The notes: generated from the sequence alone by a model not told the origin. 64,000 nucleotides of DNA from Minisyncoccota bacterium (GCA_022842645.1 JALHPE010000001.1:7711-71710), one strand, 5' to 3'; counted from the first letter of the stretch, positions 34,016 to 51,459 are shown. A program made the numbers and translations.

Positions 34016-34100
34016 CGGAGGCGGTGAGATTCGAACTCACGGTACCTTGCGGCACGCCGACTTTCCAAGTCGGTGGAATAAACCACTATCCGACGCCTCC
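34016..34100 (-). tRNA. tRNA-Ser (anticodon GGA), type II
   Basis: Acceptor GGAGGCG/CGCCTCC, D-stem GGA/TCC, anticodon stem CCGAC/GTCGG with loop TTGGAAA, long variable arm, T-arm GTGAGTTCGAATCTCAC, discriminator G. Confidence 0.85.
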
Positions 34101-34138: not shown

Positions 34139-34843
34139 CTAGACAACCGAAGCTTTAAATCGTCTGTCAGGCACCTTCGCTTCTTTCCACGATTCGTATA
34201 GGCCGGAAATTCTGGGATTCGATGTTCCAAAGACACGCAAATACGATTCCACTGCACGCGCACTACAAAGATAGATTCTGGTGTTTTGCGCGATTATGTG
34301 GGGTTCGATATCATTTTGACGAAAGACGTCTGCTACTTGTCGGATAAGTTCTCCTGATTCGCTAGTAAAGCAAAGTCCGATGTTTTGGTACTTGTTGCCA
34401 AGAGTCGTGTGTCGATGAATATACAAACAACCATCAGTATCCATTAAGCCACGAACGCATGTAGTTCTGTATGAAAAATTTGCAAGAACCCATGATGGAA
34501 TTCGAAGACCTTTTTCAAGTTTATTCCCACTCGACAATCCTTGGGAAATTAAAAAATCTACAACTGTCGTACTATTTAGGACAAGGACGAGCGCATTAGT
34601 ATGTTGCCGCTTGCGTGAGGTGGGACGAATACCGAAAAGATGATCACATAAATCAGAAATATACTCAGCATACTGTGCGTCTTTTTCGGCATTCATTGTG
34701 ATACTCAATTGCCAGGGATTTCCAATACCTCCATCCCCGAGCATAATGCCAAAAAACTCGGCAAGCTTAGATGACTTCTCAGGCAATCGTACAATTTTTC
34801 TGTGACTTTTTGCCGGGTAGCGTAATGTAGCTACTGAACTCAT
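34139..34843 (-). CDS. LAGLIDADG homing endonuclease (double-motif, free-standing)
   Basis: Two LAGLIDADG motifs, LAEFFGIMLGDGGI and VRGLMDTDGCLYI, about 100 aa apart; 234 aa. Confidence 0.8.
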   Translation of the reverse strand: MSSVATLRYPAKSHRKIVRLPEKSSKLAEFFGIMLGDGGIGNPWQLSITMNAEKDAQYAEYISDLCDHLFGIRPTSRKRQHTNALVLVLNSTTVVDFLISQGLSSGNKLEKGLRIPSWVLANFSYRTTCVRGLMDTDGCLYIHRHTTLGNKYQNIGLCFTSESGELIRQVADVFRQNDIEPHIIAQNTRIYLCSARAVESYLRVFGTSNPRISGLYESWKEAKVPDRRFKASVV

Positions 34844-35153: not shown

Positions 35154-35184
35154 TAACAGCCGCATACTCTGCGGCTGTTTTTAT
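35154..35184. terminator. Bidirectional rho-independent terminator
   Basis: acagccgcat-actc-tgcggctgt followed by TTTTAT. Confidence 0.65.
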
Positions 35185-36074
35185 ACCTGCATCTGCGACA
35201 GTGCACTGATACGCTCTTCTACAGGCGGATGTGTTGCAAAAAGCTTTGCAACAAACCGCCCCATGTCGTGCGCACCAAAAGGATTTGAAATGAAGAGATG
35301 CGCTGTTGCGTGATTGGCGCGCTCCATCGGCGCTTCGTGGGAGGAAATCTTTACGAGCGCAGAGGCGAGCGCATCTGGATAGCGCGTAAGGAGCGCGCCC
35401 GAGGCATCGGCGAGGAACTCTCGGCGGCGCGATATGGCGAGTTGAATGAGTTGCGCGGCAATCGGCGCAAGAAGAATGCCAATAAATCCAACAGCCATGA
35501 GAATGATATTTGCTCGCGCATCCCTGTCCCCCGCACCATAAAACGACGCGCGGAGAAAGAAGTCGGCGAGCATTGCAACAAAACCAGCAAGCACGACGGC
35601 AACCGTCATCACGAGAATGTCGCGGTTCCCGATGTGTGCGAGCTCGTGCGCTACCACGCCCTCAAGCTCGCTTCTGTCGAGTCGCTCTAAGAGACCTGTT
35701 GTCACCGCAACGACCGAGTGCTTCGGGTTTCTCCCTGTTGCAAAGGCGTTCGGTGCCGGATCATTCACGATGAAGACGCGCGGCTTGGGAAGCCCTGCAG
35801 TAATCGCAAGATTTTCGACAATGCGATGGAGTTCGCGGTAGGTGTTCGGATCCGCCTCGACTGCTCCCGTGGAAGACAGCGCCACTTTATCCGAAAACCA
35901 ATAGGCCGAGATATTCATGAAAAGCGAGAATGCGACCGCAACCCACAAAATCCCCGGCTGTTGTAAATACCACGCCGTCACATACCCAATAGCTACAACA
36001 AAGACGAGAAACCCGCCCATAAGGAGCCAGGTGCGACGGATGTTTGCTGCCTGATGCGTGTATAAACTAGCCAT
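35181..36074 (-). CDS. htpX: Zinc metalloprotease HtpX (M48 family)
   Basis: HEXXH seen as VVAHELAHIGNRD, four TM segments, 297 aa. Confidence 0.9.
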   Translation of the reverse strand: MASLYTHQAANIRRTWLLMGGFLVFVVAIGYVTAWYLQQPGILWVAVAFSLFMNISAYWFSDKVALSSTGAVEADPNTYRELHRIVENLAITAGLPKPRVFIVNDPAPNAFATGRNPKHSVVAVTTGLLERLDRSELEGVVAHELAHIGNRDILVMTVAVVLAGFVAMLADFFLRASFYGAGDRDARANIILMAVGFIGILLAPIAAQLIQLAISRRREFLADASGALLTRYPDALASALVKISSHEAPMERANHATAHLFISNPFGAHDMGRFVAKLFATHPPVEERISALSQMQV

Positions 36075-36115
36075 ATCTGTTAGCCTATCTTCAAAAAAAC
36101 CAAAATCAAGTGTAT

Positions 36116-36676
36116 TTAGAACTTCACTGGAACCGGCTGACGCGCGGCCTCCTCACTTTCCGCAAGCGCAAAGAATTCGCTCGGCTTGAAGCCAAATGCG
36201 GAACCGATGATGTTTGAGGGAACTTGTTCGAGCGCGTTTTTCAATTCCTGCACGACGGAATTATAAAAGCGGCGTGCGGCTTGGATTTTATTCTCCGTGT
36301 CGGAGAGCTCACGCTGAAGCTCGAGGAAGTTGGTATTTGCCTTCAAGTCTGGGTAGCTCTCTGCGACAGCAAAGAGTGATTTAAGAGCACCCGTAAGCAT
36401 GTTTTCCGCGGCGGCATGTTCTTCCACGGTGCCCGCATTCATCGCCTGTGTGCGCATCTCCGTCACTTTCGCGAGCGTCTCTTTTTCGTGCGTCGCATAA
36501 CCTTTCACCGTTTCAATAATGTTCGGGATGAGGTCGTAGCGGCGTTTGAGTTGCACATCAATATCAGCCCATGCTTCCTGCACACGATTAGTAAGCGCAA
36601 CGAGGCGGTTGTAGCCCAGAATCGCCCAGAGGACGACGGCTGCAACAACACCGAGAATTATGTATAGGATTGTCAT
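36116..36676 (-). CDS. lemA: LemA family protein
   Basis: N-terminal TM helix plus the conserved LemA region (YNRLVALTNRVQEAWADIDVQLKRRYDLIPNIIETVKGYATHEKETL). The htpX-lemA pairing is common. Confidence 0.85.
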   Translation of the reverse strand: MTILYIILGVVAAVVLWAILGYNRLVALTNRVQEAWADIDVQLKRRYDLIPNIIETVKGYATHEKETLAKVTEMRTQAMNAGTVEEHAAAENMLTGALKSLFAVAESYPDLKANTNFLELQRELSDTENKIQAARRFYNSVVQELKNALEQVPSNIIGSAFGFKPSEFFALAESEEAARQPVPVKF

Positions 36677-36701
36677 GTCTCCATTTTATCACACGACTAT
36701 C

Positions 36702-39700
36702 TTATCTCAACCCGCCCGGAGGAACCGCGCACCCGGCAGGATTTGGTTCGGCTTCGCAGAGGCATTGGATGAACGAATTGATTGGTTGTTCTGGCTCGCA
36801 GGTGCGCACGTCCTCTGGCGTAGGGTTTCCACTTTGCCCGCTGGACCCGCCCCCTCCTCCATTTCCACTGCCCGAACCGCTTCCGCCTGTGCCTACGGGC
36901 GTGCTCTGACTTCGCGCGATTTCTTCCGGCGTGAATATACGCTCCGGATCAGAATCGTCGCCACGCACACGCACCAGTGTCTCATGCAGAAGTTTATCGG
37001 TTGTATTCTTCGTGTTGCACACCAAGCCAAAACGAGTCGATTCGGTGATTGTTGGCGAACTGATAGATCCGTTCTGAGGGCCACGATGGAAGACTTTGAA
37101 GTCTGCGCTTATAACAGCGCACGTTGAGCTTCCGACATCGGTCCCGACACTCGACCACGAAAGCGTTGTTGTGGATCCAGAAGTTATGAACGAGGGATTA
37201 GCAACAATTGCACCCACGATAACCACCGGCTGCGGAGTGGATTGCGGCTCAGTCGGTGGTCGAGGAGGCTCTTCCTCCCCTCCTCCACCAAAATCAAAGA
37301 ACGCAAATAAGCCCTGGAGGAGTCCTTGCAAAACACTCATCCCACCGCGAGAGAATCCGCCCGAGCCACTGCCAGAAGAAGGAGGACTGCCGGGCACATC
37401 TCCAGAAGCAGAATCTTCAGGGGTGGAATCCCCCGGCGCACGACCATTTGTTTTTCCACTAGAACCAGAATCTGCATTGGCGCCAGGAGCACCACCTTGT
37501 CCGCCACGATCGCCGTTTGCACCCCCATCTGCAACAGATCCTACGCCGCCTCCGTCTCCTCCTGTTGCATCTTGTTGTGCCTTCTCTTCTTCTCCACTTT
37601 CACCTGGCGTAGCGGGTGCAACTCCTTGTGGCTCACCACTTTGCGATTCAGAGGGGGGCGCATCTCCAGGAGGCGTAGAAGTAAGAACACCACTATTCTG
37701 ATTTTGAATGGTCGTGTCGGGAGTAGATGGCGCTTCTGACGTAGCAGGAGTTTCTAAAGGCTCTTCTCCCCCAGGCATAATCGCATACACCCCCGCGCCA
37801 CCTAATAACATACTGACCGCCGACAAACATGAACGGAAGCCTGTACACATATCCCACGCTCTGCGTGCAACAGACGTTTGATTAGAGGGTGTATTTTGGG
37901 GCGATGCCGTGTTTACCCCTGCTCCCGAGCCGCGTGCTTGCGCCTCAGCCGTAGCCCCCCTTGCGTAATCATCAAGCGCACCTCGTGCAAGCGCGAGCAC
38001 TTGTGGATCATCTAGCTTGGCACCGTTTGCAAGTGCCCCATCAACGTCATCGAGCTTGCGTGCAGCATTGTCATACAACCCGGAAGCTGAAGTACCCTTC
38101 GTTATTACAGCCTTTTCGATCGCTACATCGCGAAGGAATTTAATCTCTGCAATCTGTGCTTCGCGCGCAGCTTGTGCGCGCGACCACTCATCAAGGCGTT
38201 TTATAAAATCATCGTTAATTGGAGCCACATCCCTACTAACTGGAGCTACAGCCTCAGGAACCACAGCGGCTGGAGGAGTGTCTGGAATGGGCGGTGGGGT
38301 TGGGGTGGTATCGCGCGGAATCGGAGGCGGCGTTTGCGGGAGCGGAGGTGGAACCGCATCAACAATCGGCGCACGTGGAAGATTTGCATTAGGCAGTGGT
38401 GACGGCGTTGTGGCTGGTACGTCTGGAAGTGCATCTCGAGCCAGGGCACCTGTGGGTAAAACGTCTCTTGTAAACCACCCACGTAACGATTGAGCTGCGT
38501 CTCCGATCGATGATCGAAGAGATGTCAAAGAGAAACCTTCCGAAACAGGCACAAGCGCATCCGCTCGATCCGGTACAAATGCACCAGCTTCTCCTAACGA
38601 ACCTTTTATTTCTTTTTCCTTTTGCCCCGGACGGAACGTGAATGGCGAAGGGGGAATGGACGGTGGAGTAGTCACTTGTGTATTTGGCGGTGGCGCAATG
38701 TCTGCAGCTACGACAGGCGCAGCAGATGGCGGGCGTGGCGTATCGCGGACAAGAGCAACAAAACTCGGTGACTCCGGAAGAGTTGGTGCAGGTGTGCCAG
38801 GCGAGCGTGGAGTTGTGGGCACAGGCACTGCCGGTGCCTCAGCCACAGCAGGAGTGTTGTCGGCAACAGTAATTACAGAAGGAGTTGGTATATCCTCCAC
38901 ATCAACTGCTCGAACAACTACATCAAAAGAACTATTCGCGATCACGGTTGGAGCAGAGATAGTATCAAAAATCGCGAGGGCAGTTACAACTTCTCCATGA
39001 GATAACGATTGGACGGTCGGGATATCTACAGCGGAGACTGTACGAACTTCCGGAATAGTAGAAACTTTTGCTAATAATGTATTTATTTCGATGACCGCAT
39101 TCTCAACTTTTGCTCCCTGAGAAGCGATTCTTGCTTTGAATTGAGCTTGGTTCGCGGCTTTGCTAAAAATATTACGTGCATAAAAGTTATCAACCTCCTG
39201 AGCCAAACTGCTCACATTTGTGCGCGCTATTTTCGCCTGCTCCAATAATCCTTCTCGAACATCACTGGGCACGAGAGGATTTTTGGCGACATTCTCTGCT
39301 GCGTCCGCTAATCTACCGACACCTGAACGCAAAGAGGGAGATGTGTTTTTTAATATCTCAAGGCCATCTAAACCTCCGATTTGCCTTGCTCGCAATAGTT
39401 CTTCCTGCATTACCTTTAAACGTCTAATACTCGGGGGTATAGCAACTTGTGCTTTTGCCAAATCTGCTTCTGCGGCAGCCACTAATTCTTTTCGAGGATT
39501 CGGTGCTATTGGCGGGTTTGTCTCAGAAACCAACATTGAAGTAGGAGAAGGGGGCGGGAGACTCTCTTCTGCTGCTCGGCGTGCACGTGCGGCAATCTCT
39601 GACAAATCGGCCAAAACAGTCGCTTGATCGGGGGAGGAACCGATGCCGGCGCGCCACACTTCGTCCATGGCAGCAAGTTGTTTACGCAAAATTTCCGTCT

Positions 39701-42700
39701 CCCCAAGTGGTAAACTTTCTCGACGAAGATCTGCAACGAGGTTCTCACGTAATACCTTCGTAGCTTGTTCTTCAGCACGACGTGCAATCTCATTCGGATC
39801 GCCTTGTATTCTACTGCGCCCGATCCCCTCTTGGTACTGCCGATTTGCAATCTCAATCGCACGCCGATTTGCTTCGACGGAGACATTTTGATTCGCAACC
39901 TCTCGAGTGGCTTCGGGACTTGGCGGTTGGTTTCCTCGAACAAAATTCCTCACGTTATTCATAAGACCTTCGATACGATTTCCTGCTGCAATGACACCCT
40001 CCGTCACACCGTATAGAATCGCATTCTGTATACCCGCACCCGAAGTCTCATTACCCACCGAATTCATAGCAGGGGTATCCCCGCTTTGAGGAACATTTGC
40101 AACAACTGTCGGGCCATCCAGAGCTTGAGGAGCATCCGCAACTACAGGTCTCGCAGCTGGTGTTGGTTCGTTTATCAATTTTGGTTCTGTGGATATCTGC
40201 GCCACATACGTCTCTGTCCTTGAAAAATCCGGACTTATAGGGCGTGTTGCGGCGATGATGGGATTATCTTGATTAACAATTGGCGTTGCCCTAACATCCA
40301 GCGGCGAAGGAACATCTGAATAGACTTGAGCAATTTGCGCTTCTACTGCTGCTTCCCTTCCTAACGCGGCCTTCATCAGACCTCCTAACCCACGATCGCC
40401 AATAGGGATTTCTGACACAACGCTCTGATCCGGCCTAAGGATAAAGGGTGATCTGCCACCATCAAGATCCTGCGCTATACGGGGAGCATCCGGAGAGACT
40501 GCGGATTCGGGCACCTGGGCAATCTGCGTACGTGGCAACTTCGCCACGGCATCGATATCTGCCTGAATAACAACATCTGCTGCCGTCATCTCTGCAATCG
40601 TAGGCTCGGTTCCCAGATCAGGGCGGCCTGCTATATTTTTTGCAAGGGCACTTTGGTATCGCTTGTATGCTTTTGTGTCTTCAAACCCAGCCTGTTTCAG
40701 TGCCGAAGCGATTGAGCGATTATATGCAAGAGAAGTTGCTACATCCGGATTCGGAGTAATTGGGTCAAGCGTGCGAGCACCGATTATCATTTTTGCCGCC
40801 TCACGTTCGCGCTGGGCAAGTTGTATTTTCGCTAGATCTTCGCTGGCTCTCGCTGGCAGACCTCCCGCCGGTGCACCCAAAGACGCTTCACGGAAGTTTG
40901 CAAACCCCGCGAGCACGTCCGCCTCACCAGTCTGGTGATTTACAATACGGATATTCGGATTCCATGCGCGAGCGGCATCAGCCATAATGAGACTGCCCAG
41001 TACCTGCCCACCATCAGGCAAATCCCCTTTTTGCATGACGGTCTCCACACCGATACCCCGGTGACCAAACTGGCGAGCATGGGCGTAGTATTCATCAAAA
41101 GGAGTGAGTATGCCTATATCCACCACTTTCTCACCGGCAATATTTGTCTGGGTTCTTCCTAGGTACGCTGACACATACACGCCTGAGCCTCTTCCGTTGT
41201 TTGCATTTGACTCAAGGATTTTGAACATATCGTATGTATTTGCACGTGTCTCGTGAAATACCAATAAGTCTCTCTGTGCAGGAGTACGGACCCTACCAAC
41301 GTTCTCACGATTAGCCCAAACGTCGTTCATATACCACAATCGAACTGTGTATGTCTCTCCATTAAATGGAATTTTTTTAACCGCAACTGAAACATCTACC
41401 TCACCTTTTCGCGCCGTCCTGACTTTCAGTGTTTGCATGGTTGCATCCGGCAATATAGGCAAACTTGATGGATTAATAGTTGCCCCCGTGCTGCACATTT
41501 TTGCGTCAGTGCAGACAGCGGTTGCAACCGCATCGTTACTCGCAGGGACAGGTGCTGTTGTATTTGTGGGCTCTGAAGTTGGGTTACTGGGAGGAACTTC
41601 GCCGTCTCCTGAGCGCACAACCGGGTTCGCGACCTCCGGAGGAGTATTTACTGCTCCCTGATTCGCATTCGGCACCTCAGCAATTGCAGTAGGCCTTGAT
41701 GTTTGAGCGTACCACTGAGCCGCTGGTTCTGAGCCGAATACTTTTGCAAGACCGTCACGTAACGCCTCATTTGTAATGGGATCCTCGATTCCATATCTTG
41801 CCAGTGCTGGATATTCTGCTTTAAAGATTCCCTTCGTTAGAGCCGCCCGAGCAGCAAGATCGTTGCGCGCAATGGGTGTAGTAAGTGTAAGTCCCCCTGT
41901 TTCTGCATGGCGCAAACGAGACAAATCATCAAAGGAACCGTTGATCACATCAGTACCAACCCACAACTTAACCACATCGTTATAAGTTTTTGCATTTACG
42001 TACGCTGGTTGGTAATCCAATTTTGCTGAAACCATAGCCGCAGCGTCTGCGTGAGAGGCAAAACATGCGTATGGAGCGTTGCAAGATATGATATTTATTT
42101 TCTCGGGCACAACCTTTGTTAAGTCAGGCTTGCCATTGACAATTGGGACATCGTTGAAAAGCTCTGGTTTGATTTTCTGTACTTCGCGCACACCTTCCCA
42201 TTTCATTCCCCCGAGATTGTTTAATTCTTTAGCAGCGGCAACATGCCTCGAACGAACGTCGACATTTCTCCATTGAGTTTGATTTCCTAAAAAACTTACC
42301 CTACTGGTATCACTACCATCGCGACCAAAAGAAAGAGTGACGGGGCTTTTCTCCCCCGTAACCACACTAGCTGACACAGAGTCTCCTGCTTGCGCAAGAC
42401 CAATCGAAGAACCTTCCGGCATAAAAAGAGAAAATGGAGGGAGCGCGGCGGGATTCGGAGTGGCTGCAAGTCCAACGATGACAGCCGCTTGCTTTAATAC
42501 ACGACCAACTGGCGTCTCGCCTATTCGAGACAAGACTGTAGGGGCGGATGGTATCAAACGATCGACTCCTGCTCCGCCTACAAGAGAATCTATCCCACTT
42601 CCCCCACTTGGAACATTTGATGGGGCATTTGAAGCGCGCATAACTGGGGGAGGTTGGATATTGCGAAGCGGAATACTCTCCACGTTATTGATTCCAGACA

Positions 42701-45700
42701 CACTTGGCACCTCGACAGCACGCCCCCTTGAAGGGATTGCCGCAGGAATCGCATCGGACACGGGCGTAATCGGCGGCTCATATAATACAAGTGCTCTACT
42801 TGGCGGAAGCGGTGCGTCTGGGCGAATACCGCTGAGTGCAGCTCTTACTTCTTGCGCATCAGGTCGCAGATCAAGCTCAGGATGGTATACACGATCCGCA
42901 AAACGTTGCGCAGCAACTGTCTCAAACTCTGAAGCGGTACCCGACCATCTTCCAGCAGTAATTTCATGGTTGAGTCCGCTAGTGACGGAGCGACCCATGC
43001 GATCCGCAAGAACCGCAGCATCAGTACTTAAACCTGCAGTTGGAGGACGAAATACCCCTGAAGCAATGGCGTAATCGTCGCGCGCAACGTCGAGAGCGAA
43101 ATTACCCAAACCCCTTCCTATGGCTCCCGCTTGTTTAAAAGTGACAATACCAAGAGGTCCGACGTATTGTGTCGAATCAACAATAAAAGCTCCAAGTGCA
43201 GAACGGGGGCTGCGCGCGAGTCCAGCGATTTGCACATCCGTGACCGGAGTAACTCCAAATATAGACGAGACGTTAGAAGCCCCATCCCACAGACTTTTCA
43301 TGACACCTCCACCAAAAAGTTTCGGGTAATTCCCCTCACGCCACGCATTTTGTACAACTTCGCCCCAATAATCTGAACGCTCCTGCAGCCACTGAGGAGG
43401 AGCTTCAGTACCTGTAATGGTATTAATTCTTTGTTGCAGAGAAGCATCGGTGACTTTGCCCTGAAGGATTTGATCAATCCGAGCGTTTGTGAGGGTCAGA
43501 TTACCCTGCGGATCGTACCATCCAGGACCTTCTGTGCCGGCGATGCCTTCCAACGTGAATGGAGTAAGCGCTGATTCAAGCATGACTCTTCCCAAACTCA
43601 TGTCCCCACGCTGATACGCATCAATCATTTCAGAGAAACTCAAATTGCTCTGGAGAGCATCTTGTTTCTGCTGAATGAGTTGCGGTAGTATTTCTCGCAT
43701 TGCAAGTTCCTCGCGCGTCATGGTCGCCGGGTCACGCTTCATAAACGCTACATAATCCGACGCACGCGGGTCGTTCGTTAGAAATCCTAGAGTATTACGG
43801 CTCGTATTAATATCGCCCTCAACGTCTGAAAGTTGTGCTCCTAGCGAAGCAATCTCCTGACGTCTATCGTAAAGAAGTCCTGTATCTCTAGGAGAAATCG
43901 CGACATCATTCAGGGCATCTATTTCAGAGCGCAACTGAAGTGCGCGCAGATTTGCTTTATCAAGCGCGCTCTGAGCGCGATACCGCTCGTCTAAGACACT
44001 TTGCACGGGATCGCTGATGCGCTCCTGATATTCCCGATTAACTTCCGCAAAACGAGCACGAGCTGCTTCAAGGTTATTTACAGCCTCAAATCGCTCTTTC
44101 TGCAACGTATCAAGTGGCGCTGCAACAGAGCTAAAGTTCGCCAGGGCTTCTTGTTGTACCCGTGCTGACGCATTTGCTTCCGCAATCGCAACGCTCCGCT
44201 CTTGGAATAATGCACCCCTCTTTGCATCAACCGATGAAAACGTCTTCGTCAAACGATCATTATCGGTATTGAATGCTTCGCGAAGTCCGTTATGTTCATT
44301 CGCTAGACTTTGATACCGTTGAAAATCTGCTTGGCTTAATTTTTTTCCATTTGCCTCCGCTTTTGCGTCCAGTGCGGAGAGCTCTGTGCGTATGGCATCC
44401 ATCCGCGCGATTCGCGCCTCTTGTTCGGGATACGTACGAACCCGCGCGATCACATCCTCCGTTTTGCTGGTCATTGCCCCCACTGTGTTTGTCTCGACTG
44501 TTGTTTTAAACGTGCGTTCCGCCATGACGCATCCGTTTGTTTGCGCACACAATGACTCTTCTGCGGCATTCTGCGCTGCAATCGCTGTATTTTTCTCCTG
44601 AATCGCGGCCTGACTACGAGCTTCTGCCTGCGCGGCATCTCGCACAACCGCCTCGCGCGCCGCCCTCATTCTTAAAACCTCCTCTTCACTCCGCCCCCCT
44701 GAAATAGATCCGTTTTGCGAAAGATTTAATTGCGTATTCTCACTATTTTTTAGAACGTCTTGCAAACGCCTCTCCGCCTGAACGACATCTTGCGCCGCTT
44801 CGATGCGATCGCGCTCGATGCGTAAGAACGTTTTGTCTGTTTCGCCAGTTTGAGTGCCTTTTTCTCCTGCAAATGTATCAATACCAACTCGAGATCCTTC
44901 GGACACCCCGGTGCTATACCCTGGCAAACCCTGTTTTCTAAATGCATCGTCGCTAGGTCCGCTTGGGGAGTTCTTAAGACCCGCCTGTTCATTAGCCGCG
45001 ATTGTGGGGTTGATCTGGTTTAGGGGATCCTGCACACCACTCGGTCCCCCGGCGTTCTGCGCAAGATACCGAAGACTCTCCTGTCGACTCGCTTCTCTCT
45101 CTACTCCGTCCAGCGCCGCAATCGCTTGGGCACGATCAGATAACTGAAGCCCCAGCGAGTCACCAAGTTTTGTAAACCATGCACGATTGTCTGGTTGTTC
45201 TTCCACCGCCGCCTTGAGCGCAAGCGCCTCGCCTGAGGATATGAGTTCCCCTCGCGCCTGTTTTTCGAGTACATATTCAGCAACTCCCTTCTGAAATTGC
45301 TCCGGCGTCACACCTTCGAATTGTTTTATAACATCTTCTATTGAAGCAAGGGAATCTAGGTTCGATTCTTCTGGGCGACTTCCCATGCTGTCGAGAATTG
45401 CTTTGCTTGTTACCAACTCCCCACTATTCACATCAACTATTTCCGCTTCTCCGAATGGGCTCTCTGTAAATTCGGTTGTGTTTAATGTGGGGTCAACGGA
45501 ACCGGTGGCTAATGTTTTCAACCCGGCCCACGCCTCTGCCGCAGTTGCTTTCGCGGTTTGCCACATTCCATTCAAGCCATCCGCAAGAGTTGAAACTGTT
45601 GACGGCCGAGATGTCGGAAGAGCAAAAGGATCAGGAGATCCTGTATTGCTGAAAGTTCCTGTCGGGCGAACAAGATCACCCAACCCCTGATAAAACGAAC

Positions 45701-46565
45701 TTCCACCGTTTGCAGCGGAGACTGAGTCTACGTACTGCTGGTATGGTGATGGACTGAAAGTCCCTGAATTATTAGCAGTGGGTAATTCAGATAAGTCGAA
45801 AGTATTTCTGCCACTCCCTTGCAGATATTCGTATAATTGCGAAGGATTGATACGCCCCTGATCGATGAGTTTTTGATAATTTGCGACGTCCCCCAAACTA
45901 CCAGTGGTATTTATTGGGGGTCGTACCGTGCCTGCCTGTACTGCATTATTAAAATTAATGTTTTGGTCTATAAGCGCCTGTTCGTAACTTGAGAGATTAG
46001 GATTTAGTGCCCTATTCATACTCTCATTCAACTGCATTTGACTTTCGTTGGGACCGAATAACTGATCCCAATAATCACCTAATTTCCCTCCTAGGGACTG
46101 CGAATCTGCAGAAACACCACTTGGAGTTCCGGGCTGACCTTGCACAATATTTTTTCCCCCAGACATCGCTTCTATTGCTTTTTGCTGCAAATCTTGGCAG
46201 GTTGTAGCTCCTGAAGGAACGGTGCAGGACTTTTCTTCGACGCCTCCACGAATACCTTGCTTCCAACATGTTTGCACACCACCGCTTAAGCCAGTAAGGT
46301 TTGCTTTGTCACACTCGATGGCCTTGGCAGCGCTTGCATCTTTATTTGTGTTAGAAGAAACAGAATTTTCTTTTTCTCCAGCTGAGACATTGTTTTGTTG
46401 TTGCGCGGGACACTTTTCAGGACACACATTTACAATAGCTCCATTCAACGCGCAATTAATCTTGCGAGCATTACCAGCACATTGTTCCTGCGCGAAAGAA
46501 GGACTAGGGATTAACAAAAGGACAGAGGAACAAATAGCAAAAAACGTGACGTGTGCACGATTCAT
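36702..46565 (-). CDS. Giant secreted/cell-surface protein (3287 aa)
   Basis: Signal peptide, Cys-rich N-terminal region, long coiled-coil stretches, Pro- and Gly-rich linkers, and a C-terminal module shared with the 869-aa protein (GGM..FF amphipathic segment, Ig-like TTTLSWSSVG domain, terminal VRTCEPEQPINSFIQCLCEAEPNPAGC). The many antisense ORFs within it are low-complexity artefacts. Confidence 0.8.
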   Translation of the reverse strand: MNRAHVTFFAICSSVLLLIPSPSFAQEQCAGNARKINCALNGAIVNVCPEKCPAQQQNNVSAGEKENSVSSNTNKDASAAKAIECDKANLTGLSGGVQTCWKQGIRGGVEEKSCTVPSGATTCQDLQQKAIEAMSGGKNIVQGQPGTPSGVSADSQSLGGKLGDYWDQLFGPNESQMQLNESMNRALNPNLSSYEQALIDQNINFNNAVQAGTVRPPINTTGSLGDVANYQKLIDQGRINPSQLYEYLQGSGRNTFDLSELPTANNSGTFSPSPYQQYVDSVSAANGGSSFYQGLGDLVRPTGTFSNTGSPDPFALPTSRPSTVSTLADGLNGMWQTAKATAAEAWAGLKTLATGSVDPTLNTTEFTESPFGEAEIVDVNSGELVTSKAILDSMGSRPEESNLDSLASIEDVIKQFEGVTPEQFQKGVAEYVLEKQARGELISSGEALALKAAVEEQPDNRAWFTKLGDSLGLQLSDRAQAIAALDGVEREASRQESLRYLAQNAGGPSGVQDPLNQINPTIAANEQAGLKNSPSGPSDDAFRKQGLPGYSTGVSEGSRVGIDTFAGEKGTQTGETDKTFLRIERDRIEAAQDVVQAERRLQDVLKNSENTQLNLSQNGSISGGRSEEEVLRMRAAREAVVRDAAQAEARSQAAIQEKNTAIAAQNAAEESLCAQTNGCVMAERTFKTTVETNTVGAMTSKTEDVIARVRTYPEQEARIARMDAIRTELSALDAKAEANGKKLSQADFQRYQSLANEHNGLREAFNTDNDRLTKTFSSVDAKRGALFQERSVAIAEANASARVQQEALANFSSVAAPLDTLQKERFEAVNNLEAARARFAEVNREYQERISDPVQSVLDERYRAQSALDKANLRALQLRSEIDALNDVAISPRDTGLLYDRRQEIASLGAQLSDVEGDINTSRNTLGFLTNDPRASDYVAFMKRDPATMTREELAMREILPQLIQQKQDALQSNLSFSEMIDAYQRGDMSLGRVMLESALTPFTLEGIAGTEGPGWYDPQGNLTLTNARIDQILQGKVTDASLQQRINTITGTEAPPQWLQERSDYWGEVVQNAWREGNYPKLFGGGVMKSLWDGASNVSSIFGVTPVTDVQIAGLARSPRSALGAFIVDSTQYVGPLGIVTFKQAGAIGRGLGNFALDVARDDYAIASGVFRPPTAGLSTDAAVLADRMGRSVTSGLNHEITAGRWSGTASEFETVAAQRFADRVYHPELDLRPDAQEVRAALSGIRPDAPLPPSRALVLYEPPITPVSDAIPAAIPSRGRAVEVPSVSGINNVESIPLRNIQPPPVMRASNAPSNVPSGGSGIDSLVGGAGVDRLIPSAPTVLSRIGETPVGRVLKQAAVIVGLAATPNPAALPPFSLFMPEGSSIGLAQAGDSVSASVVTGEKSPVTLSFGRDGSDTSRVSFLGNQTQWRNVDVRSRHVAAAKELNNLGGMKWEGVREVQKIKPELFNDVPIVNGKPDLTKVVPEKINIISCNAPYACFASHADAAAMVSAKLDYQPAYVNAKTYNDVVKLWVGTDVINGSFDDLSRLRHAETGGLTLTTPIARNDLAARAALTKGIFKAEYPALARYGIEDPITNEALRDGLAKVFGSEPAAQWYAQTSRPTAIAEVPNANQGAVNTPPEVANPVVRSGDGEVPPSNPTSEPTNTTAPVPASNDAVATAVCTDAKMCSTGATINPSSLPILPDATMQTLKVRTARKGEVDVSVAVKKIPFNGETYTVRLWYMNDVWANRENVGRVRTPAQRDLLVFHETRANTYDMFKILESNANNGRGSGVYVSAYLGRTQTNIAGEKVVDIGILTPFDEYYAHARQFGHRGIGVETVMQKGDLPDGGQVLGSLIMADAARAWNPNIRIVNHQTGEADVLAGFANFREASLGAPAGGLPARASEDLAKIQLAQREREAAKMIIGARTLDPITPNPDVATSLAYNRSIASALKQAGFEDTKAYKRYQSALAKNIAGRPDLGTEPTIAEMTAADVVIQADIDAVAKLPRTQIAQVPESAVSPDAPRIAQDLDGGRSPFILRPDQSVVSEIPIGDRGLGGLMKAALGREAAVEAQIAQVYSDVPSPLDVRATPIVNQDNPIIAATRPISPDFSRTETYVAQISTEPKLINEPTPAARPVVADAPQALDGPTVVANVPQSGDTPAMNSVGNETSGAGIQNAILYGVTEGVIAAGNRIEGLMNNVRNFVRGNQPPSPEATREVANQNVSVEANRRAIEIANRQYQEGIGRSRIQGDPNEIARRAEEQATKVLRENLVADLRRESLPLGETEILRKQLAAMDEVWRAGIGSSPDQATVLADLSEIAARARRAAEESLPPPSPTSMLVSETNPPIAPNPRKELVAAAEADLAKAQVAIPPSIRRLKVMQEELLRARQIGGLDGLEILKNTSPSLRSGVGRLADAAENVAKNPLVPSDVREGLLEQAKIARTNVSSLAQEVDNFYARNIFSKAANQAQFKARIASQGAKVENAVIEINTLLAKVSTIPEVRTVSAVDIPTVQSLSHGEVVTALAIFDTISAPTVIANSSFDVVVRAVDVEDIPTPSVITVADNTPAVAEAPAVPVPTTPRSPGTPAPTLPESPSFVALVRDTPRPPSAAPVVAADIAPPPNTQVTTPPSIPPSPFTFRPGQKEKEIKGSLGEAGAFVPDRADALVPVSEGFSLTSLRSSIGDAAQSLRGWFTRDVLPTGALARDALPDVPATTPSPLPNANLPRAPIVDAVPPPLPQTPPPIPRDTTPTPPPIPDTPPAAVVPEAVAPVSRDVAPINDDFIKRLDEWSRAQAAREAQIAEIKFLRDVAIEKAVITKGTSASGLYDNAARKLDDVDGALANGAKLDDPQVLALARGALDDYARGATAEAQARGSGAGVNTASPQNTPSNQTSVARRAWDMCTGFRSCLSAVSMLLGGAGVYAIMPGGEEPLETPATSEAPSTPDTTIQNQNSGVLTSTPPGDAPPSESQSGEPQGVAPATPGESGEEEKAQQDATGGDGGGVGSVADGGANGDRGGQGGAPGANADSGSSGKTNGRAPGDSTPEDSASGDVPGSPPSSGSGSGGFSRGGMSVLQGLLQGLFAFFDFGGGGEEEPPRPPTEPQSTPQPVVIVGAIVANPSFITSGSTTTLSWSSVGTDVGSSTCAVISADFKVFHRGPQNGSISSPTITESTRFGLVCNTKNTTDKLLHETLVRVRGDDSDPERIFTPEEIARSQSTPVGTGGSGSGSGNGGGGGSSGQSGNPTPEDVRTCEPEQPINSFIQCLCEAEPNPAGCAVPPGGLR

Positions 46566-46636
46566 TACGAGTAATTATACGTATATAAAAGTAACAAAAA
46601 TGGGATTTCCCCATTCATACAAAAAAGTGACCCGAA

Positions 46637-47044
46637 TTACTCCGGGTCACTTGATGACGTGGTCGTGGCTCGCGCCTCTTGGATGCGCATGTCCGCCAAA
46701 AGCCCTCTTACGAGATAGCTCGGCATCATATCGCTCAAGTCGCGTACGTATGCGACCGTGTATTTTCCTTCCGGAAACACACCGGCAACATGGCGCACAT
46801 CAGGCACACATTGCCGAAGCCCAATAACGAGCTCTTCTTTGGGGGTTTGTACTCCCGAGAAGTACTTGGCCAGTATTTCAGCCGAAAACCGATCTGAGCA
46901 GAAATAGCCTTCCACTTGACCAGACTCGACTGTGCCAACTACCGGAATATCGGGATCTTTGAGATCAACCGTGACCTCTTCCCATCCGAGAGCTGCGCTT
47001 CCGAAGATGCCAACGAACACGAACGTCAAGACTGTACTTTTCAT
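46637..47044 (-). CDS. Small secreted protein (135 aa) between the two large surface-protein genes
   Basis: Signal peptide MKSTVLTFVFVGIFGSAALG; two Cys. Confidence 0.45.
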   Translation of the reverse strand: MKSTVLTFVFVGIFGSAALGWEEVTVDLKDPDIPVVGTVESGQVEGYFCSDRFSAEILAKYFSGVQTPKEELVIGLRQCVPDVRHVAGVFPEGKYTVAYVRDLSDMMPSYLVRGLLADMRIQEARATTTSSSDPE

Positions 47045-47134
47045 GACAAAAGCGTCCTTCGGCGCTACTACAGTTTTGATCTGGATTGTTTATACACGAA
47101 AAAAGTAAATAAGTCAAGTTTCTGCTGGGGACAG

Positions 47135-49744
47135 CTACATCCCCCTTGGAGAAACAGAACATCCCGCGGGGTTGGGTTCGGCCTCACAAAGACATGCAAT
47201 GAATGCGTCGATCGATTGTTCGGGATCACAGGTGCGGACGTCTATGGGAGCTACTGATGATTCGCCGCTGGCACTTGTTCCACCTGTTCCAGAAGAAGAG
47301 ACTGCGCTCGAAGCGCGGCCGGAATTAGAGAAGAGGGGCGGCGTGGTGGAAGCACTGCCCTCCACGCGCACCAACACTTCGTTAATGAATTTGTCTTCCC
47401 CACGCTCGATGTCACAAATAACCGCGAAACGTGTTGTCTCGGAAATGAGTGGTGATTGCACTTTTCCATTTGCGCCGCGCGCAATCACGCGCGAGAGCGC
47501 ATCGACAACTGCGCAAGACTGCGCACCCACACTCGACCACGAAAGCTGCGTGGTTTTGCCCGAAGCGATTTCAATCGGATTTGCAGTAATCGTCGCAACA
47601 GGTGTCGTACGCGGCTCAACTTTCGCAGGAGATGGATTTGCTGAATTCGCACCCGGAGGAGTGAAGAATGAAGCCAGGGCTTTTATAAGCGTGCCCATTA
47701 TTTGCATTCCTCCCTGTATAAATCCTGAGTTTGATTGCTGTGCACTCGCCCGAGGCTCTGGTGGAGTTTCTGATGCGGGTGGTGTCTCACTTTGCGCCGG
47801 AGGCTTCGGGGGGGAATTCGCCTTCGCCTCCTCAGTTTCTGGCGCAGAAGGCAGCGAGTCTTGAGGTTCCGACACAGAAGGAGGTGGTGTTGGCACTGGA
47901 GGTGGTGGTGTGGGTGCGGTTGGAATTGAAGGAGGTGGTGGAGGAACCTCGGCAACTTGGGTTGGAATCTCTACCCGAGACGCGCCAGGAAAGTTGAAAC
48001 GCTCCTGAATATTCCCAAAAACTTCTCTCACGTTCTGTGCGATTGCTGAAAGGCCTGAAAGCAGCCCTTCTCCGGGTGTGACTACCTCAGGAACTTCTTG
48101 TGGTGGTGTCTCTGATTCAAATCCAAGTGCCGAGCGTATTCGTTCTGCAACTAACCCACTGAGCGTGCCCGGGCCTGTGCCGAAGACGCTAATTGCATTT
48201 GCTTCGTCAAACTCAAATTCCGGCTCCGCGGCTTCAAGTTCACCTGCGTTTGCGCGGAGTCTCACGAGTCCTTCCGCCTCGCTGAGTACGCGCTGCTCAG
48301 AGCGCGCATCTTGCAGCGCGCGATACTCGTTTGATTTTATGAAATCGGGAAGCCAAGGAGTCCTGTCAATCCATTCTCGAAACGGGAGCGCGCGTGTTTC
48401 GTATGCAAGATCGAGCGCATACTCTGCTCGCGCAACATCCTCCTCAAGAATACGTCGCGCTGTCGCAACTTCCGGATCATCTGCACCGATGCGCCCACCA
48501 ACAAGTCCACTGAACGCCCCCTCAACTGCAATCGTACGTGCACGCTCGAAGCTTTTCGCAACAGGAAGTCCCTGCTCAAGACCTTCTGCAAAACGATTTG
48601 GAAGAACAGTACCTTCATCCCACCACAAAGGATACTGGGGGAGTTTCGGTGATACATCAGAAACAGTGCCTGTATCTATTTCTGCGGTTACGATATCAAC
48701 TGAAGGAAGTATCTCTTCTTCGGGAGGTGACTTAGGTGGCGTAAAAGGGTTTACATCATATGGCGGACGAATGGGGTTGCCTATGTCGTTGGGCGGATTA
48801 TCTGTCACCGGCTGCGCAGGACCGCCGCTCAGAGACGGAGCTTTTGGTGGAGGCGTTTGTGGATTGTTACTCGCAACAACCGGCCCGGGACGAGGAACGC
48901 TAGTATTCCCTCCGTTTCCTCCGGAAAATCCTGGCGCAGAGTTTATGCCAAAGAGGTTACCAAAAAAATCTATGACGCTCGGGAGAAGTCCTGAAAATAC
49001 ACTCCCCACCACGGGAGAAACAATAGTGCTAGAGATACCAGAAGCTCCAAATGTCGTGAGATGTTCAAATGGATTTCCACCACTAAATACCCCACCTTCG
49101 CCAAAGGTGCTTGCGGGGCGCTTGGGTTCGAGCACTGACGGTTTTCCCGTGGGAACTTGAGGCTTGGTTTGTGTCGGTGACGGAGCTTGTGGAGTCACCA
49201 CCTCAACTTCTGGTAGCACTACACTACCATCCGGATTGACCGCGGCACCACCGGTTGGATCAACAGATCCGCCCGGGAGAGGTTCCCCACTTGGAGGTTC
49301 AAACGCATCGAGCGGATCACTTCCAGAAGGCAATGTGCCACCCGAACCACCCGATGAACCTGAACTTCCCGAGCTACCCGCGCCACCACTCGGAGGATTG
49401 GTGGTGCCGCTGTCGGGCACGTCAGGAGCCCCGGTCAGAGGCTTTCCGTCGCAGCCTATTTTTGCCAAACACTTCGACGCGTCACATTTCGAAATTACCA
49501 CCGGGTTTGCTATCCCATCACATTCAAGTCCAAGTGCTTCGTTGTCGCCGACTGGTGTGCGCATGCATTCTGCGCCTTGCGGCAATGCATCTGGATGATT
49601 AGGCTCGGTAACACCCAGACCACAACGAATATCAGCATACTGAATCGAGCCCTTCAATTGAGCGTGCGTAATGAACGGCGCCGTTACAGAAGAAGCAACC
49701 CCGAACACTATGGTAAACACTAAACGAACGGTCATCCCTACCAT
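47135..49744 (-). CDS. Secreted Pro/Gly-rich surface protein (869 aa) sharing the C-terminal Ig-like plus CLCEAEPNPAGC module with the giant protein
   Basis: Signal peptide, Cys-rich N-terminal region, PPPP linkers; the C-terminal roughly 230 aa align to the giant protein C-terminus. Confidence 0.7.
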   Translation of the reverse strand: MVGMTVRLVFTIVFGVASSVTAPFITHAQLKGSIQYADIRCGLGVTEPNHPDALPQGAECMRTPVGDNEALGLECDGIANPVVISKCDASKCLAKIGCDGKPLTGAPDVPDSGTTNPPSGGAGSSGSSGSSGGSGGTLPSGSDPLDAFEPPSGEPLPGGSVDPTGGAAVNPDGSVVLPEVEVVTPQAPSPTQTKPQVPTGKPSVLEPKRPASTFGEGGVFSGGNPFEHLTTFGASGISSTIVSPVVGSVFSGLLPSVIDFFGNLFGINSAPGFSGGNGGNTSVPRPGPVVASNNPQTPPPKAPSLSGGPAQPVTDNPPNDIGNPIRPPYDVNPFTPPKSPPEEEILPSVDIVTAEIDTGTVSDVSPKLPQYPLWWDEGTVLPNRFAEGLEQGLPVAKSFERARTIAVEGAFSGLVGGRIGADDPEVATARRILEEDVARAEYALDLAYETRALPFREWIDRTPWLPDFIKSNEYRALQDARSEQRVLSEAEGLVRLRANAGELEAAEPEFEFDEANAISVFGTGPGTLSGLVAERIRSALGFESETPPQEVPEVVTPGEGLLSGLSAIAQNVREVFGNIQERFNFPGASRVEIPTQVAEVPPPPPSIPTAPTPPPPVPTPPPSVSEPQDSLPSAPETEEAKANSPPKPPAQSETPPASETPPEPRASAQQSNSGFIQGGMQIMGTLIKALASFFTPPGANSANPSPAKVEPRTTPVATITANPIEIASGKTTQLSWSSVGAQSCAVVDALSRVIARGANGKVQSPLISETTRFAVICDIERGEDKFINEVLVRVEGSASTTPPLFSNSGRASSAVSSSGTGGTSASGESSVAPIDVRTCDPEQSIDAFIACLCEAEPNPAGCSVSPRGM

Positions 49745-49756
49745 TATACGAAGCGC

Positions 49757-49785
49757 GGCCGCCCTTCGGGCGGCCGCGCACGCAT
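49757..49785. terminator. Perfect GC hairpin gcgcggccgccc-ttcg-ggcggccgcgc between the surface-protein operon start and the groEL end
   Basis: Read directly; the U-tract is weak. Confidence 0.5.
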
Positions 49786-49806: not shown

Positions 49807-51459
49807 TTACATGTCGTCCATACCCATACCACCTCCCATAGCAGGAGCATCCTTCTTCTCTTCTGGCTCATCTGCAATCGCGGCTTCAGTGGTAAGAAGC
49901 ACAGCGGCGGCAGATGCAGCGTTTGCCACACCGGAGCGCGTCACCTTCACCGGATCGATAATACCAGCTTCGAAAAGATCGATGATAGACACTTCCTCAC
50001 TCTCGCTTGCGGCATCAAAACCAAATGCGCCACCTTTCTTTATGACTTCTTGTAGGAGGACAGCGCCGTCTTCTCTGCCACAATTCTTTGCGATCTGGAG
50101 AAATGGCGCGGAAAGTGCCGCAACAAGAATACGATACCCGATGGTGTATTCATCGTGCGCCTTTGCATCAATTTTTTTACTCAGCTTATCTCCCACTTTT
50201 GCAAGTGCTGCACCACCACCAGGAACCACACCCTCTGCAATCGCGGCTTTTGTTGCATTCACCGCATCTTCGATCTTATCTTTGAGGTATTTCATTTCAG
50301 TTTCTGTCGCGGCACCAACACGAATCACCGCAACGCCGCCAGAAAGTTTTGCAACACGCTCATCAAGCTTCTCGCGATCAAACTTTGAATCTGTGTTTTC
50401 TGCTTGCTTTCTGAGCTGTGACACGCGCGATTCGATGTCGCTCTTCTTGCCCTTGCCACCGACGATAACCGTTGAGTCCTTCGTTGCAACAACACGCTGC
50501 GCTTTGCCGAGCATGCTCACCTCTGCGTTTTCGAGTTTGATACCGAGATCTTCTGAGACCGTCTGTGCACCGACGGTAATCGCAATGTCTTGGAGCATAT
50601 CCTTCTTGCGATCGCCATAACCCGGGGCTTTGACCGCAAGCACATTGAATGCGCCACGAAGTTTGTTCACCACAAATGTTGCAAGTGCTTCACCGTCGAC
50701 ATCATCAGCAATGATGACAAGGTCTTTCTTGCCGCTTTGTGCAAGTTTCTCAAGGAGTGGGAGAATTTCCTTAATGGTTGAAATCTTTCTGTCGGTGATC
50801 AAGACGGGCACATCCTTTGCCACGGCCTCCATGCGCTCTGCATTCGTAATCATGTAGGGCGAGACATAGCCCTTGTCGAATTCGAGACCTTCAACGTAAT
50901 CGGTTTCGATACCAATTGATTGCGATTCTTCCACCGTTACCACGCCGTCTTTACCAACCTTCTCAACAACATCCGCAATCTTCTCGCCAAGTTCTTTGTT
51001 TTCTGCAGAAATAGAGGCGACGTATTGAATGTCTTTCTTCCCCTTCACCTCACGCGCCATTTTCTTAAGTTCTGTAACCGCATCCTTCGCTGCCGCTTCA
51101 ATACCGCGACGAATCATCATGGCATTCGCGCCCATTGCTGTGCGCTTCAAGCCTTCATGCACAAGCGCTTGTGTGAGGACAACGGCTGTTGTTGTGCCAT
51201 CCCCCGCTTTGTCATTCGTCTTCGTGGCAACTTCCTTCACGATACCAGCGCCCATGTTCTCAAATTTGTCTTTAAGTGTGATTTCTTTTGCGATGGAAAC
51301 GCCATCGTTCGTGATGGTCGGTCCTCCCCAGGAGCGATCGATTGCAACGTTCCTGCCGCGAGGCCCAAGCGTGACGCGCACAGCACCCGCAACAATGTCC
51401 ACCCCTCGCTTAAGGGCGCCACGTACTTCAGAGTCGAAAATAACTATTTTTGCCGACAT
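49807..51459 (-). CDS. groL: Chaperonin GroEL (Cpn60)
   Basis: AAVEEGIVPGGG-type motifs and the GGM-repeat C-terminus (GGGMGMDDM); 550 aa. Confidence 0.95.
   Translation of the reverse strand: MSAKIVIFDSEVRGALKRGVDIVAGAVRVTLGPRGRNVAIDRSWGGPTITNDGVSIAKEITLKDKFENMGAGIVKEVATKTNDKAGDGTTTAVVLTQALVHEGLKRTAMGANAMMIRRGIEAAAKDAVTELKKMAREVKGKKDIQYVASISAENKELGEKIADVVEKVGKDGVVTVEESQSIGIETDYVEGLEFDKGYVSPYMITNAERMEAVAKDVPVLITDRKISTIKEILPLLEKLAQSGKKDLVIIADDVDGEALATFVVNKLRGAFNVLAVKAPGYGDRKKDMLQDIAITVGAQTVSEDLGIKLENAEVSMLGKAQRVVATKDSTVIVGGKGKKSDIESRVSQLRKQAENTDSKFDREKLDERVAKLSGGVAVIRVGAATETEMKYLKDKIEDAVNATKAAIAEGVVPGGGAALAKVGDKLSKKIDAKAHDEYTIGYRILVAALSAPFLQIAKNCGREDGAVLLQEVIKKGGAFGFDAASESEEVSIIDLFEAGIIDPVKVTRSGVANAASAAAVLLTTEAAIADEPEEKKDAPAMGGGMGMDDM

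Follow-up and report, generated by a model that had tools for sequence, protein, structure and literature searches.

A variable locus for giant secreted proteins with predicted wall-degrading domains, set between groESL and lemA-htpX in a Saccharibacteria-like bacterium

The locus and the module shared by two of its proteins

This study concerns a locus for large secreted proteins in a 64,000-nucleotide (nt) stretch of DNA from a Minisyncoccota bacterium. We refer to this whole stretch as the window and use its coordinates throughout; residues of the giant protein at the center of the locus are counted from its ATG, and all features of the locus given below are on the minus strand. Five consecutive genes encode, in the order of transcription, a secreted protein of 869 amino acids (aa) (47135-49744), a secreted-looking protein of 135 aa (46637-47044), a giant secreted protein of 3287 aa in a 9.9-kb open reading frame (ORF) (36702-46565), LemA (186 aa; 36116-36676), and HtpX (297 aa; 35181-36074), exactly as an initial annotation made from the sequence had listed them. 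Overlooked there were groEL (49807-51459; Pfam Cpn60, 1.2e-66) and groES (51494-51817; Pfam Cpn10, 2e-30), which lie directly upstream on the same strand and form the conserved left flank of the locus; HtpX forms the right flank. Supported as well is the initial view that secreted proteins are encoded here by genes on one strand, in a bacterium with a small genome (Patescibacteria/Saccharibacteria). The giant ORF carries no frameshift: a byte-identical 3287-aa product with the same neighbors is found on 11 contigs of separate assemblies, and a frameshift artifact is therefore excluded.

LemA and HtpX had been correctly named. LemA matches PF04011 over the full profile (positions 1-149 of 149, 2.8e-59) and has an N-terminal transmembrane (TM) helix at residues 1-29. 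HtpX matches PF01435 (Peptidase_M48, 5.7e-36), with the HExxH motif present as HELAH at residue 143 and multiple TM segments, seen as four hydrophobic stretches. Standard annotation accounts for none of the other three proteins. The giant, the 869-aa and 135-aa proteins, and likewise the domain X, amidase family, and C-terminal module described below, gave no sequence or profile match in Pfam, NCBIfam, PHROGs, or PDB.

The giant is acidic (346 kDa, isoelectric point 4.9). Hydropathy and sequence reading point to a signal-peptide-like N terminus (residues 1-25, ...SFA/QEQ; 46491-46565), and similar hydrophobic segments begin the 869-aa and 135-aa proteins. A Cys-rich domain follows (residues 26-135, 8 Cys; 46161-46490); counted over residues 12-123 there are nine cysteines, eight of them after the signal segment. 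The conserved head of the protein reaches to about residue 490-550. Beyond it lies a Pro-poor, Ala/Glu/Arg/Gln-rich region that looks coiled-coil-like in composition tiles (residues ~549-1000; 43566-44921), within which a crude script score marks putative Pro-free, heptad-like stretches at about residues 549-932, or ~1.2 kb, in keeping with the more than 1 kb of coiled coil reported initially. The Pro/Gly linkers are there as well, in several tiles with 13-26% Pro or 32% Gly. A conserved helical segment (residues 2326-2461; 39183-39590) is common to the giant and a 1807-aa protein of a relative, L008 (30% identity, E 8e-10 by BLASTP).

After the signal segment, the giant has 22 cysteines, the 869-aa protein 12, and the 135-aa protein 2, an even number in all three. 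All internal cysteines of the giant form C-x5-C pairs (673/679, CAQTNGC; 1495/1501, CNAPYAC; 1685/1691, CTDAKMC; 2907/2913, CTGFRSC), which may be small disulfide loops; the pair that lies inside domain X is kept in a distant giant, P0012. No conserved TM anchor was found in the giant. Residues 2912-2930 were considered for this role and rejected, being of marginal hydropathy and missing in most relatives. Neither the giant nor the 869-aa protein has an LPXTG-like sortase motif near its C terminus; both end in a Cys tail (...NPAGC.VPPGGLR).

That tail is part of a larger likeness, also overlooked initially: over the C-terminal ~210 residues of each, the giant and the 869-aa protein align as paralogs (44% identity, E 2e-41). 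The shared C-terminal module covers residues 3070-3287 of the giant (36705-37358) and positions 47138-47725 in the 869-aa gene. It opens with an amphipathic Gly/Leu-rich helix (~3076-3092 in the giant, GGMSVLQGLLQGLFAFF), followed by a Pro-rich linker, a beta-rich domain (~3115-3203) presumed to be Ig-like from its pattern ANP..I..G.TT.LSWSS...C.V, a Gly/Ser linker, and a four-Cys tail. The tail of the giant reads DVRTCEPEQ..CLCEAEPNPAGC, and the consensus of the two proteins is DVRTC(D/E)PEQ.I..FI.CLCEAEPNP.GC. The module had no match in PDB or Pfam. A profile search with it retrieved 11 proteins from other metagenomes, which fall into giant-type and 869-type subfamilies and share 25 invariant columns, every tail Cys among them; the module is also kept at 18 loci, two in species-representative genomes and 16 from a metagenome scan. 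Because the DNA of the two Cys tails in the window differs at many third codon positions, recent gene conversion between them was rejected, and the conservation of the tail suggests purifying selection on the protein instead. We also rejected the idea that the module exists as a separate gene in relatives; in those cases the frame is open to the contig edge, the contigs breaking in a Gly-rich repeat.

Short open frames holding only the Cys tail occur downstream of 869-type genes in relatives (L014 6241-6438, L019 6049-6156, L024 578-769, and L025 3073-3264), and L016 has a tail-like tblastn match at the same position (~11173-11271). These fragments look like debris of recombination or duplication.

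Apart from the module, the 869-aa protein is Pro-rich (12.9%) and has an N-terminal six-Cys domain ending in GCDGKPL.G. Gene callers begin it at the second ATG (49735), giving 866 aa. The 135-aa protein is lineage-restricted: a search of 5.8 billion proteins returned only itself, and a homolog, 53% identical, sits at the same position in L016.

A conserved frame with exchanged contents

Module scans found relatives: L008, a Patescibacteria group bacterium metagenome-assembled genome (MAG); L009, an uncultured Candidatus Saccharibacteria bacterium MAG; and the 16 loci from the metagenome scan. Across Saccharibacteria/Patescibacteria relatives, the same frame recurs down to 82% GroEL identity: groES-groEL, one or more module proteins, and lemA-htpX. 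The groES-groEL pair is in the same position in L009, L016, L018, and L030, and lemA(-htpX) comes after a module-bearing gene in L006, L007, L008, L009, L010, L012, L013, L014, L021, and L030. The htpX-lemA linkage, chosen beforehand as a test that the locus could fail, holds in every relative with sufficient flanking sequence. Among relatives, HtpX is 63-92% and LemA 67-92% identical to the proteins of the window.

What lies inside the frame differs from one relative to the next. L009 is close to the window at the flanks (GroEL 94%, HtpX 92%, and LemA 89% identity), and it has a single gene between groEL and lemA, encoding a full-length, 965-aa ortholog of the 869-aa protein that is only 34% identical in its C-terminal part and 29% in its N-terminal part; the interval contains neither a giant nor a 135-aa gene. 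A 162-kb contig (Ga0155055_116; L016 12978-20609 and L013 2-10666) carries the full order of groES-groEL (89% identical), 869-type protein, 135-aa homolog, giant head, giant tail, and lemA-htpX. Its head and tail lie ~20.9 kb apart, both open to their edges, and may belong to a single ORF of ~7000 aa (~21 kb), across a 2.65-kb gap (110072-112724) between the two loci that we did not see. In GCA_041643055.1 (L030), with GroEL, LemA, and HtpX 82%, 67%, and 63% identical to the window, the order is SBP_bac_5, GroES, GroEL, a 242-aa and a 131-aa ORF on the opposite strand, a 795-aa protein, a 377-aa ORF, the 3245-aa giant P0012, LemA after a 31-nt gap, a 97-aa ORF, and HtpX. The 795-aa protein there begins with a signal and a Cys-rich head, continues with a Pro-rich body, and ends in a tail made up of a helix and an Ig-like part. 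For a second distant giant, P0013, two small genes and one for a SulP transporter separate the giant gene from lemA downstream of it. Synteny downstream of htpX is lost in relatives while the frame is kept. Since the same frame recurs from 94% to 82% GroEL identity with different content, it is, as judged by these comparisons, old, and the content within it very variable.

The giants themselves retain their ends and exchange their middles. The head of the present giant is 36% identical to that of the L016 giant over 510 aa and 30% to that of the L018 giant over 625 aa; its first ~135 residues are 45% identical to those of the L005 giant, and its tail module is common to all relatives. Its central ~2500 residues show piecewise likeness to the distant giants P0012 and P0013 only. 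An exhaustive HMMER search of residues 1000-2100 (1101 aa) against 1.84 billion representative proteins gave just five matches: P0012 (3245 aa), P0013 (4066 aa), and three small proteins, P0014 to P0016, that match residues 1757-1947. A word-based search with a tile of residues 1400-1900 retrieved no homolog. By Pfam, the cargo of other giants includes Amidase_2 (1.7e-12) and DPBB_1/RlpA-like lytic transglycosylase (5e-12), with an HEAGH motif, in L005; Amidase_2 (1.4e-14), Peptidase_M15_3, and Zeta_toxin in P0012; and CAP and a Zn_peptidase family (PF04228), with an HEIGH motif, in L016/L013. In the 1807-aa protein of L008, a 3D/MltA-like stretch was read by eye and has no Pfam support.

Zeta toxins that have been characterized act on a cytoplasmic substrate. 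The Zeta_toxin domain of P0012, a P-loop kinase domain at residues 2608-2699 of a secreted giant (34.7 bits; cutoff, 22.3), therefore raises the question of whether such cargo enters the cytoplasm of a target cell.

Signals in the DNA bear on whether the five genes work as one unit. A terminator-like hairpin with an 11- to 12-bp stem and a U-tract (46625-46652) overlaps the stop codon of the 135-aa gene; a 66-nt stretch including it has a folding energy of -25.8 kcal/mol (z -3.45). Sequence and folding also reveal a 12-bp GC hairpin (49753-49779) in the interval from groEL to the 869-aa gene, with a 61-nt stretch folding at -35 kcal/mol (z -4.78). The giant gene has a TATAAT (46574-46579) 8 nt ahead of its ATG; the 869-aa gene has another (49743-49748), 7 nt ahead of its second ATG. 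No Shine-Dalgarno sequence was seen upstream of either gene; lemA, which starts 25 nt past the stop codon of the giant, has GGAG. Perfect TATAAT sequences so close to the ATG, together with the lack of a Shine-Dalgarno sequence, suggest leaderless transcripts for the giant and the 869-aa gene. No terminator is predicted at the giant/lemA junction, and a promoter-like site overlaps the end of the giant gene just upstream of lemA. Given the strong hairpins at the 135-aa/giant and groEL/869-aa junctions, it is unlikely that the five genes are transcribed together; we infer three units, namely groESL, the 869-aa and 135-aa genes, and the giant with lemA and htpX.

These data also bear on the model of the initial annotation, a dedicated maintenance or processing module in which LemA and HtpX are specifically coupled to the giant. 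They could clear giant molecules that jam the Sec translocon or cleave the giant into released fragments, and the groESL neighborhood would then belong to one stress-linked unit. The arrangement speaks for such a link: a module-bearing gene is immediately upstream of lemA(-htpX) at no fewer than 10 loci, which span GroEL identities of 82-94%, the stop-to-start gap is mostly 5-31 nt with no terminator, the frame persists where synteny beyond htpX is lost, and HtpX is intact. However, lemA and htpX are also adjacent in Streptococcus pneumoniae (SPD_1138/1139), which has no such giant (PMC8546594); in L009 they follow the 965-aa protein without any giant; L031, L008, L013, and L014 have either a gap of 0.6-2.7 kb or further genes in between; lemA has the promoter-like site of its own; and a search of the window found no CIRCE heat-shock operator. 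The adjacency is genuine and is kept in relatives, yet it is no proof of function. Functional coupling of LemA/HtpX to the giant is possible, as the tight spacing and conserved neighborhood would allow, and we regard a dedicated module as unlikely.

Predicted enzymes and their possible target

The initial annotation had found no recognizable catalytic motif in the giant. This stands for sequence libraries only; at the level of predicted folds, two domains in its center resemble peptidoglycan hydrolases. Domain X (residues ~1440-1630; 41676-42248) is predicted to be all-helical, with a fold like the alpha-lobe of lysozyme and like the Enc34 endolysin (PDB 7q47), to which it is 13% identical. 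The Enc34 domain (PHA02564 family) is itself an all-helical, lysozyme-alpha-lobe-like peptidoglycan hydrolase, related by its authors to GH73/GH23 and probably a beta-N-acetylglucosaminidase (PMC8943055). Invariant E, W, and Y residues are present in the domain X alignment (A5); they may or may not correspond to the catalytic Glu131, Trp79, and Tyr95 of Enc34. On this modeled likeness, domain X is a candidate glycosidase acting on peptidoglycan.

The second domain (residues ~1730-1900; 40866-41378) is a divergent Amidase_2/PGRP-fold domain by predicted fold and family alignment, with the alpha/beta fold of PF01510 in the model. Its family had no match among PDB profiles, and Pfam gave none for the domain, with cutoffs of E≤0.01 (whole protein) and E≤5 (tiles). 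Eight positions of the family alignment do not vary: H1771, E1772, Y1801, H1829, E1841, D1848, H1877, and E1881. Of these, H1771, H1877, E1841 (within GIGVE), and Y1801, candidates for the zinc-binding His and the catalytic Glu/Tyr residues of PF01510 enzymes, are invariant across five sequences that include small stand-alone proteins. Those stand-alone members (P0014, P0015, and P0016; 227-350 aa) have Arg/Ala/Pro-rich sequences that suggest high-GC organisms, perhaps Actinobacteria-type hosts or their phages. At L029 1982-2845, one such gene adjoins a Transposase_20 gene; the genomic context of P0016 gave no further clue.

The center of the giant thus looks, in these models, like a glycosidase plus amidase cassette, the pair of activities seen in bifunctional autolysins. 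Tiles matching known enzyme families had been named in advance as the outcome that would make this a known system, and by that standard the two predicted folds would move the giant from a protein outside known enzyme families towards a known kind.

It could be instead that both folds are catalytically dead and serve peptidoglycan recognition, the giant being an attachment fiber as hypothesized in the initial annotation. The PGRP fold family includes pure binders, PGRP-LF (2xz8) is among the structural matches, the third zinc ligand is noncanonical, no active family is matched by sequence, and giant proteins of predators in the candidate phyla radiation (CPR) have been proposed as attachment factors (PMC8080830). 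Against this, even distant members of the sub-family, small stand-alone proteins among them, all have the two His residues, the Glu of GIGVE, and a Tyr, and related giants carry canonical Amidase_2, M15, and RlpA-like domains above Pfam thresholds. A binding-only adhesin seems to us rather improbable, and the giant is a candidate tool for opening the wall of a host bacterium rather than a plain adhesin.

Taking these lines together, we lean, with modest confidence, towards reading the locus as a hypervariable island that encodes secreted multi-enzyme proteins associated with the surface and able to degrade cell walls, with the wall of a host as their probable target. In a Saccharibacteria-like Patescibacterium, this fast-evolving island sits in the conserved groES-groEL/lemA-htpX frame. 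Its two paralogs, the 869-aa protein and the 3287-aa giant, are presumably exported by Sec and end in the same C-terminal module. The giant is built of a conserved Cys-rich head, helical and Pro-rich spacers, and the predicted central cassette, with the Enc34-type, GH73-related domain followed by the divergent Amidase_2; such a cassette would cut both the glycan of peptidoglycan and its stem-peptide link. We imagine that the C-terminal module holds the protein on the surface of the producer or otherwise sorts it, that the spacers carry the enzymes outwards, and that these act on the host's wall where the two bacteria touch, in the service of feeding or attachment. The giant may be transcribed from its own promoter with lemA and htpX, whose products may cope with the export load of a 346-kDa protein. 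We favor the host wall as the target because the producers are Saccharibacteria-like, because the island diverges far faster than its neighbors, and because its cargo changes between relatives. Cultivated Saccharibacteria are obligate epibionts (PMC10633639, PMC11623550). As for divergence, GroEL, HtpX, and LemA of L009 are 94%, 92%, and 89% identical to those of the window; its ortholog of the 869-aa protein is 34% identical, and it lacks a giant.

Several points weigh against this interpretation. No sequence-level match to the giant exists in Pfam, NCBIfam, or PHROGs or among PDB entries. The AlphaFold2 models of both domains come from very shallow alignments (five and three sequences) and have a predicted local distance difference test score (pLDDT) of ~75. 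For domain X, only one PDB match is clear, and a Foldseek comparison with viral models gave nonsignificant matches only, the best being a phage "tail-fiber/lysozyme protein" and virion proteins. In the amidase domain, the third zinc ligand, an Asp/Cys ~8-10 residues past the second His, is not evident, E1881 being a guess, and hhalign gave a nonsignificant probability of 2% between this divergent family and the canonical Amidase_2 domains of related giants. The PGRP fold also covers noncatalytic binding proteins. The giants of L010 and L014 show no enzyme match in Pfam. Finally, we purely infer retention at the surface by the C-terminal module, and these results do not discriminate between the wall of a host and that of the cell itself.

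This last point leads to a self-directed autolysin or envelope scaffold: the hydrolase domains would remodel the cell's own wall, for growth, budding, daughter-cell separation, or room for pili or secretion machines, and the spacers and terminal modules would position the giant in its own envelope. Housekeeping autolysins, though, are normally conserved, whereas the island is 34% identical or absent where GroEL is 94% identical; the enzyme cargo varies between close relatives, one of which, L009, does without any giant between groEL and lemA-htpX; and a Zeta-toxin domain, as in P0012, fits self-remodeling poorly. We give this explanation a low probability.

The toxin domain brings up another idea, that of a polymorphic-toxin-like weapon against competitors with the 135-aa protein as immunity or inhibitor partner. 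Constant ends with exchanged enzyme or toxin cargo, including Zeta_toxin and peptidases, would suit it, as would a small lineage-specific gene adjoining the giant with its 53%-identical homolog in place in L016. But the variable part is central and the C terminus the most conserved; the small gene is upstream, has a signal-like N terminus, and is replaced by an unrelated 88-aa ORF in L005; the gene after the giant is lemA and not an immunity gene; and the window holds no genes of a known toxin-export system. We think this very unlikely.

One can go further than an island aimed at the host wall and envision the groESL...lemA-htpX frame as a dedicated diversification site in Saccharibacteria, in which fixed head and tail handles receive recombined wall-degrading or toxin cargo and cotranscribed LemA/HtpX are needed for export or processing of proteins of 90-700 kDa. 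Taken as a whole, this is speculative, and we would not expect all of it to hold. If true, the locus would determine which host walls an epibiont can open and would be a bacterial counterpart of phage tail-fiber or lysin cassettes.

Of the factors used by epibionts, mainly pili and a type IV secretion system have been described to date. To our knowledge, how ultrasmall epibiotic Patescibacteria breach or remodel the wall of a host bacterium is largely unknown, and the locus provides a concrete candidate: a secreted multi-enzyme giant at a fixed address, recognizable by its C-terminal module. Differences in cargo between close relatives could track host range. If the models are right, two further gains are a very divergent sub-family of Amidase_2 and, in a bacterium, a relative of the Enc34 endolysin fold. 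More generally, CPR giants "without annotation" can conceal ordinary enzymology that is visible only by fold-level comparison.

Genomic surroundings and comparison with known systems

The rest of the window is core chromosome, with genes for FtsZ, thioredoxin reductase, tRNAs, Sua5, TsaD, an aminoacyl-tRNA synthetase, LepA, MurJ, ribonucleotide reductase, RNase J, and MetK. A mobile-element, phage, or type IV secretion-associated origin of the island was rejected in view of its neighbors (groESL, lemA-htpX, and the ribonucleotide reductase, MurJ, LepA, and RNase J genes); a PHROGs search of the island proteins gave 0 matches, and transfer, phage, or integration genes are not among the neighbors of the island.

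Some features elsewhere in the window are recorded here. Positions 3759-10000 are low in GC (0.43-0.45, compared to ~0.51 elsewhere) and look like an integrated element. In this stretch, a serine-recombinase-like ORF of 580 aa (4128-5870, minus strand) runs at its end into tRNA-Glu (4094-4165) and adjoins tRNA-Ser (3759-3844); also present are a KAP-family NTPase ORF (7270-8598) and a 259-aa ORF that has no annotation. Just downstream of htpX lies a free-standing LAGLIDADG-like ORF (34139-34843; weak Pfam match, 2.6e-05), which adjoins another tRNA-Ser (34015-34100) and has a 54%-identical homolog at the same position after htpX in L021 (3122-3343). The AT skew is strongly positive (0.22-0.26) at 24001-28000, across the MurJ gene (23917-25632) and a gene for a 798-aa protein with a C-terminal TPR region (25645-28041). 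A DUF192 ORF (33041-33634, GTG start) and a DUF1761 ORF (33496-33906) overlap by 139 nt as listed; since the Pfam match of the former begins at residue 86, its true start is probably further downstream.

A limited literature search found no published description of the giant family. The head and tail modules, the groESL/lemA-htpX address, the mosaic cargo, and the very divergent Amidase_2 sub-family all appear to be undescribed so far. The LemA-HtpX pair itself is of the known kind, both genes being full-length Pfam matches with the adjacency seen in S. pneumoniae; what differs here is that the pair forms the constant right border of a variable surface-protein island, usually within ~30 nt of its last gene.

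The closest functional parallel is with bifunctional autolysins and modular endolysins from monoderm bacteria and the phages of these bacteria, such as Atl of Staphylococcus aureus (Amidase_2 plus GH73), which also combine an Amidase_2-fold domain and a lysozyme/GH73-related domain in one secreted polypeptide, with noncatalytic targeting modules alongside; PDB 4knk is among the structural matches. In contrast to these, the giant is ~10 times larger, its domain order is reversed, and its two domains are unrecognizable by sequence. Known wall-binding repeats gave no Pfam match, and the giant has helical and Pro-rich spacers of more than 1000 residues, a Cys-rich head and tail, and hypervariable content. 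The Enc34 endolysin (PDB 7q47; PMC8943055) is a phage protein of 26 kDa and has a TM domain at its C terminus; domain X, in contrast, is embedded in a bacterial giant.

Polymorphic toxins (Rhs, CDI, LXG) likewise have constant parts, exchanged enzymatic cargo, and sequence remnants nearby. Here, however, both ends are constant and the middle varies, with neither a downstream immunity gene nor a dedicated secretion system close by.

Giant surface proteins have been described for Vampirococcus lugosii, a CPR predator/epibiont (PMC8080830), and giant genes for predatory Omnitrophota (bioRxiv 10.1101/2023.11.21.568195). Like the present giant, these are very large secreted or membrane proteins of small-genome, host-dependent bacteria, proposed to act in attachment or wall degradation. 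They were described via WD40, TPR, PKD, and glycosyl transferase domains, whereas the family studied here has head and tail modules of its own, a fixed groESL...lemA-htpX address, and exchangeable cargo of predicted peptidoglycan hydrolases.

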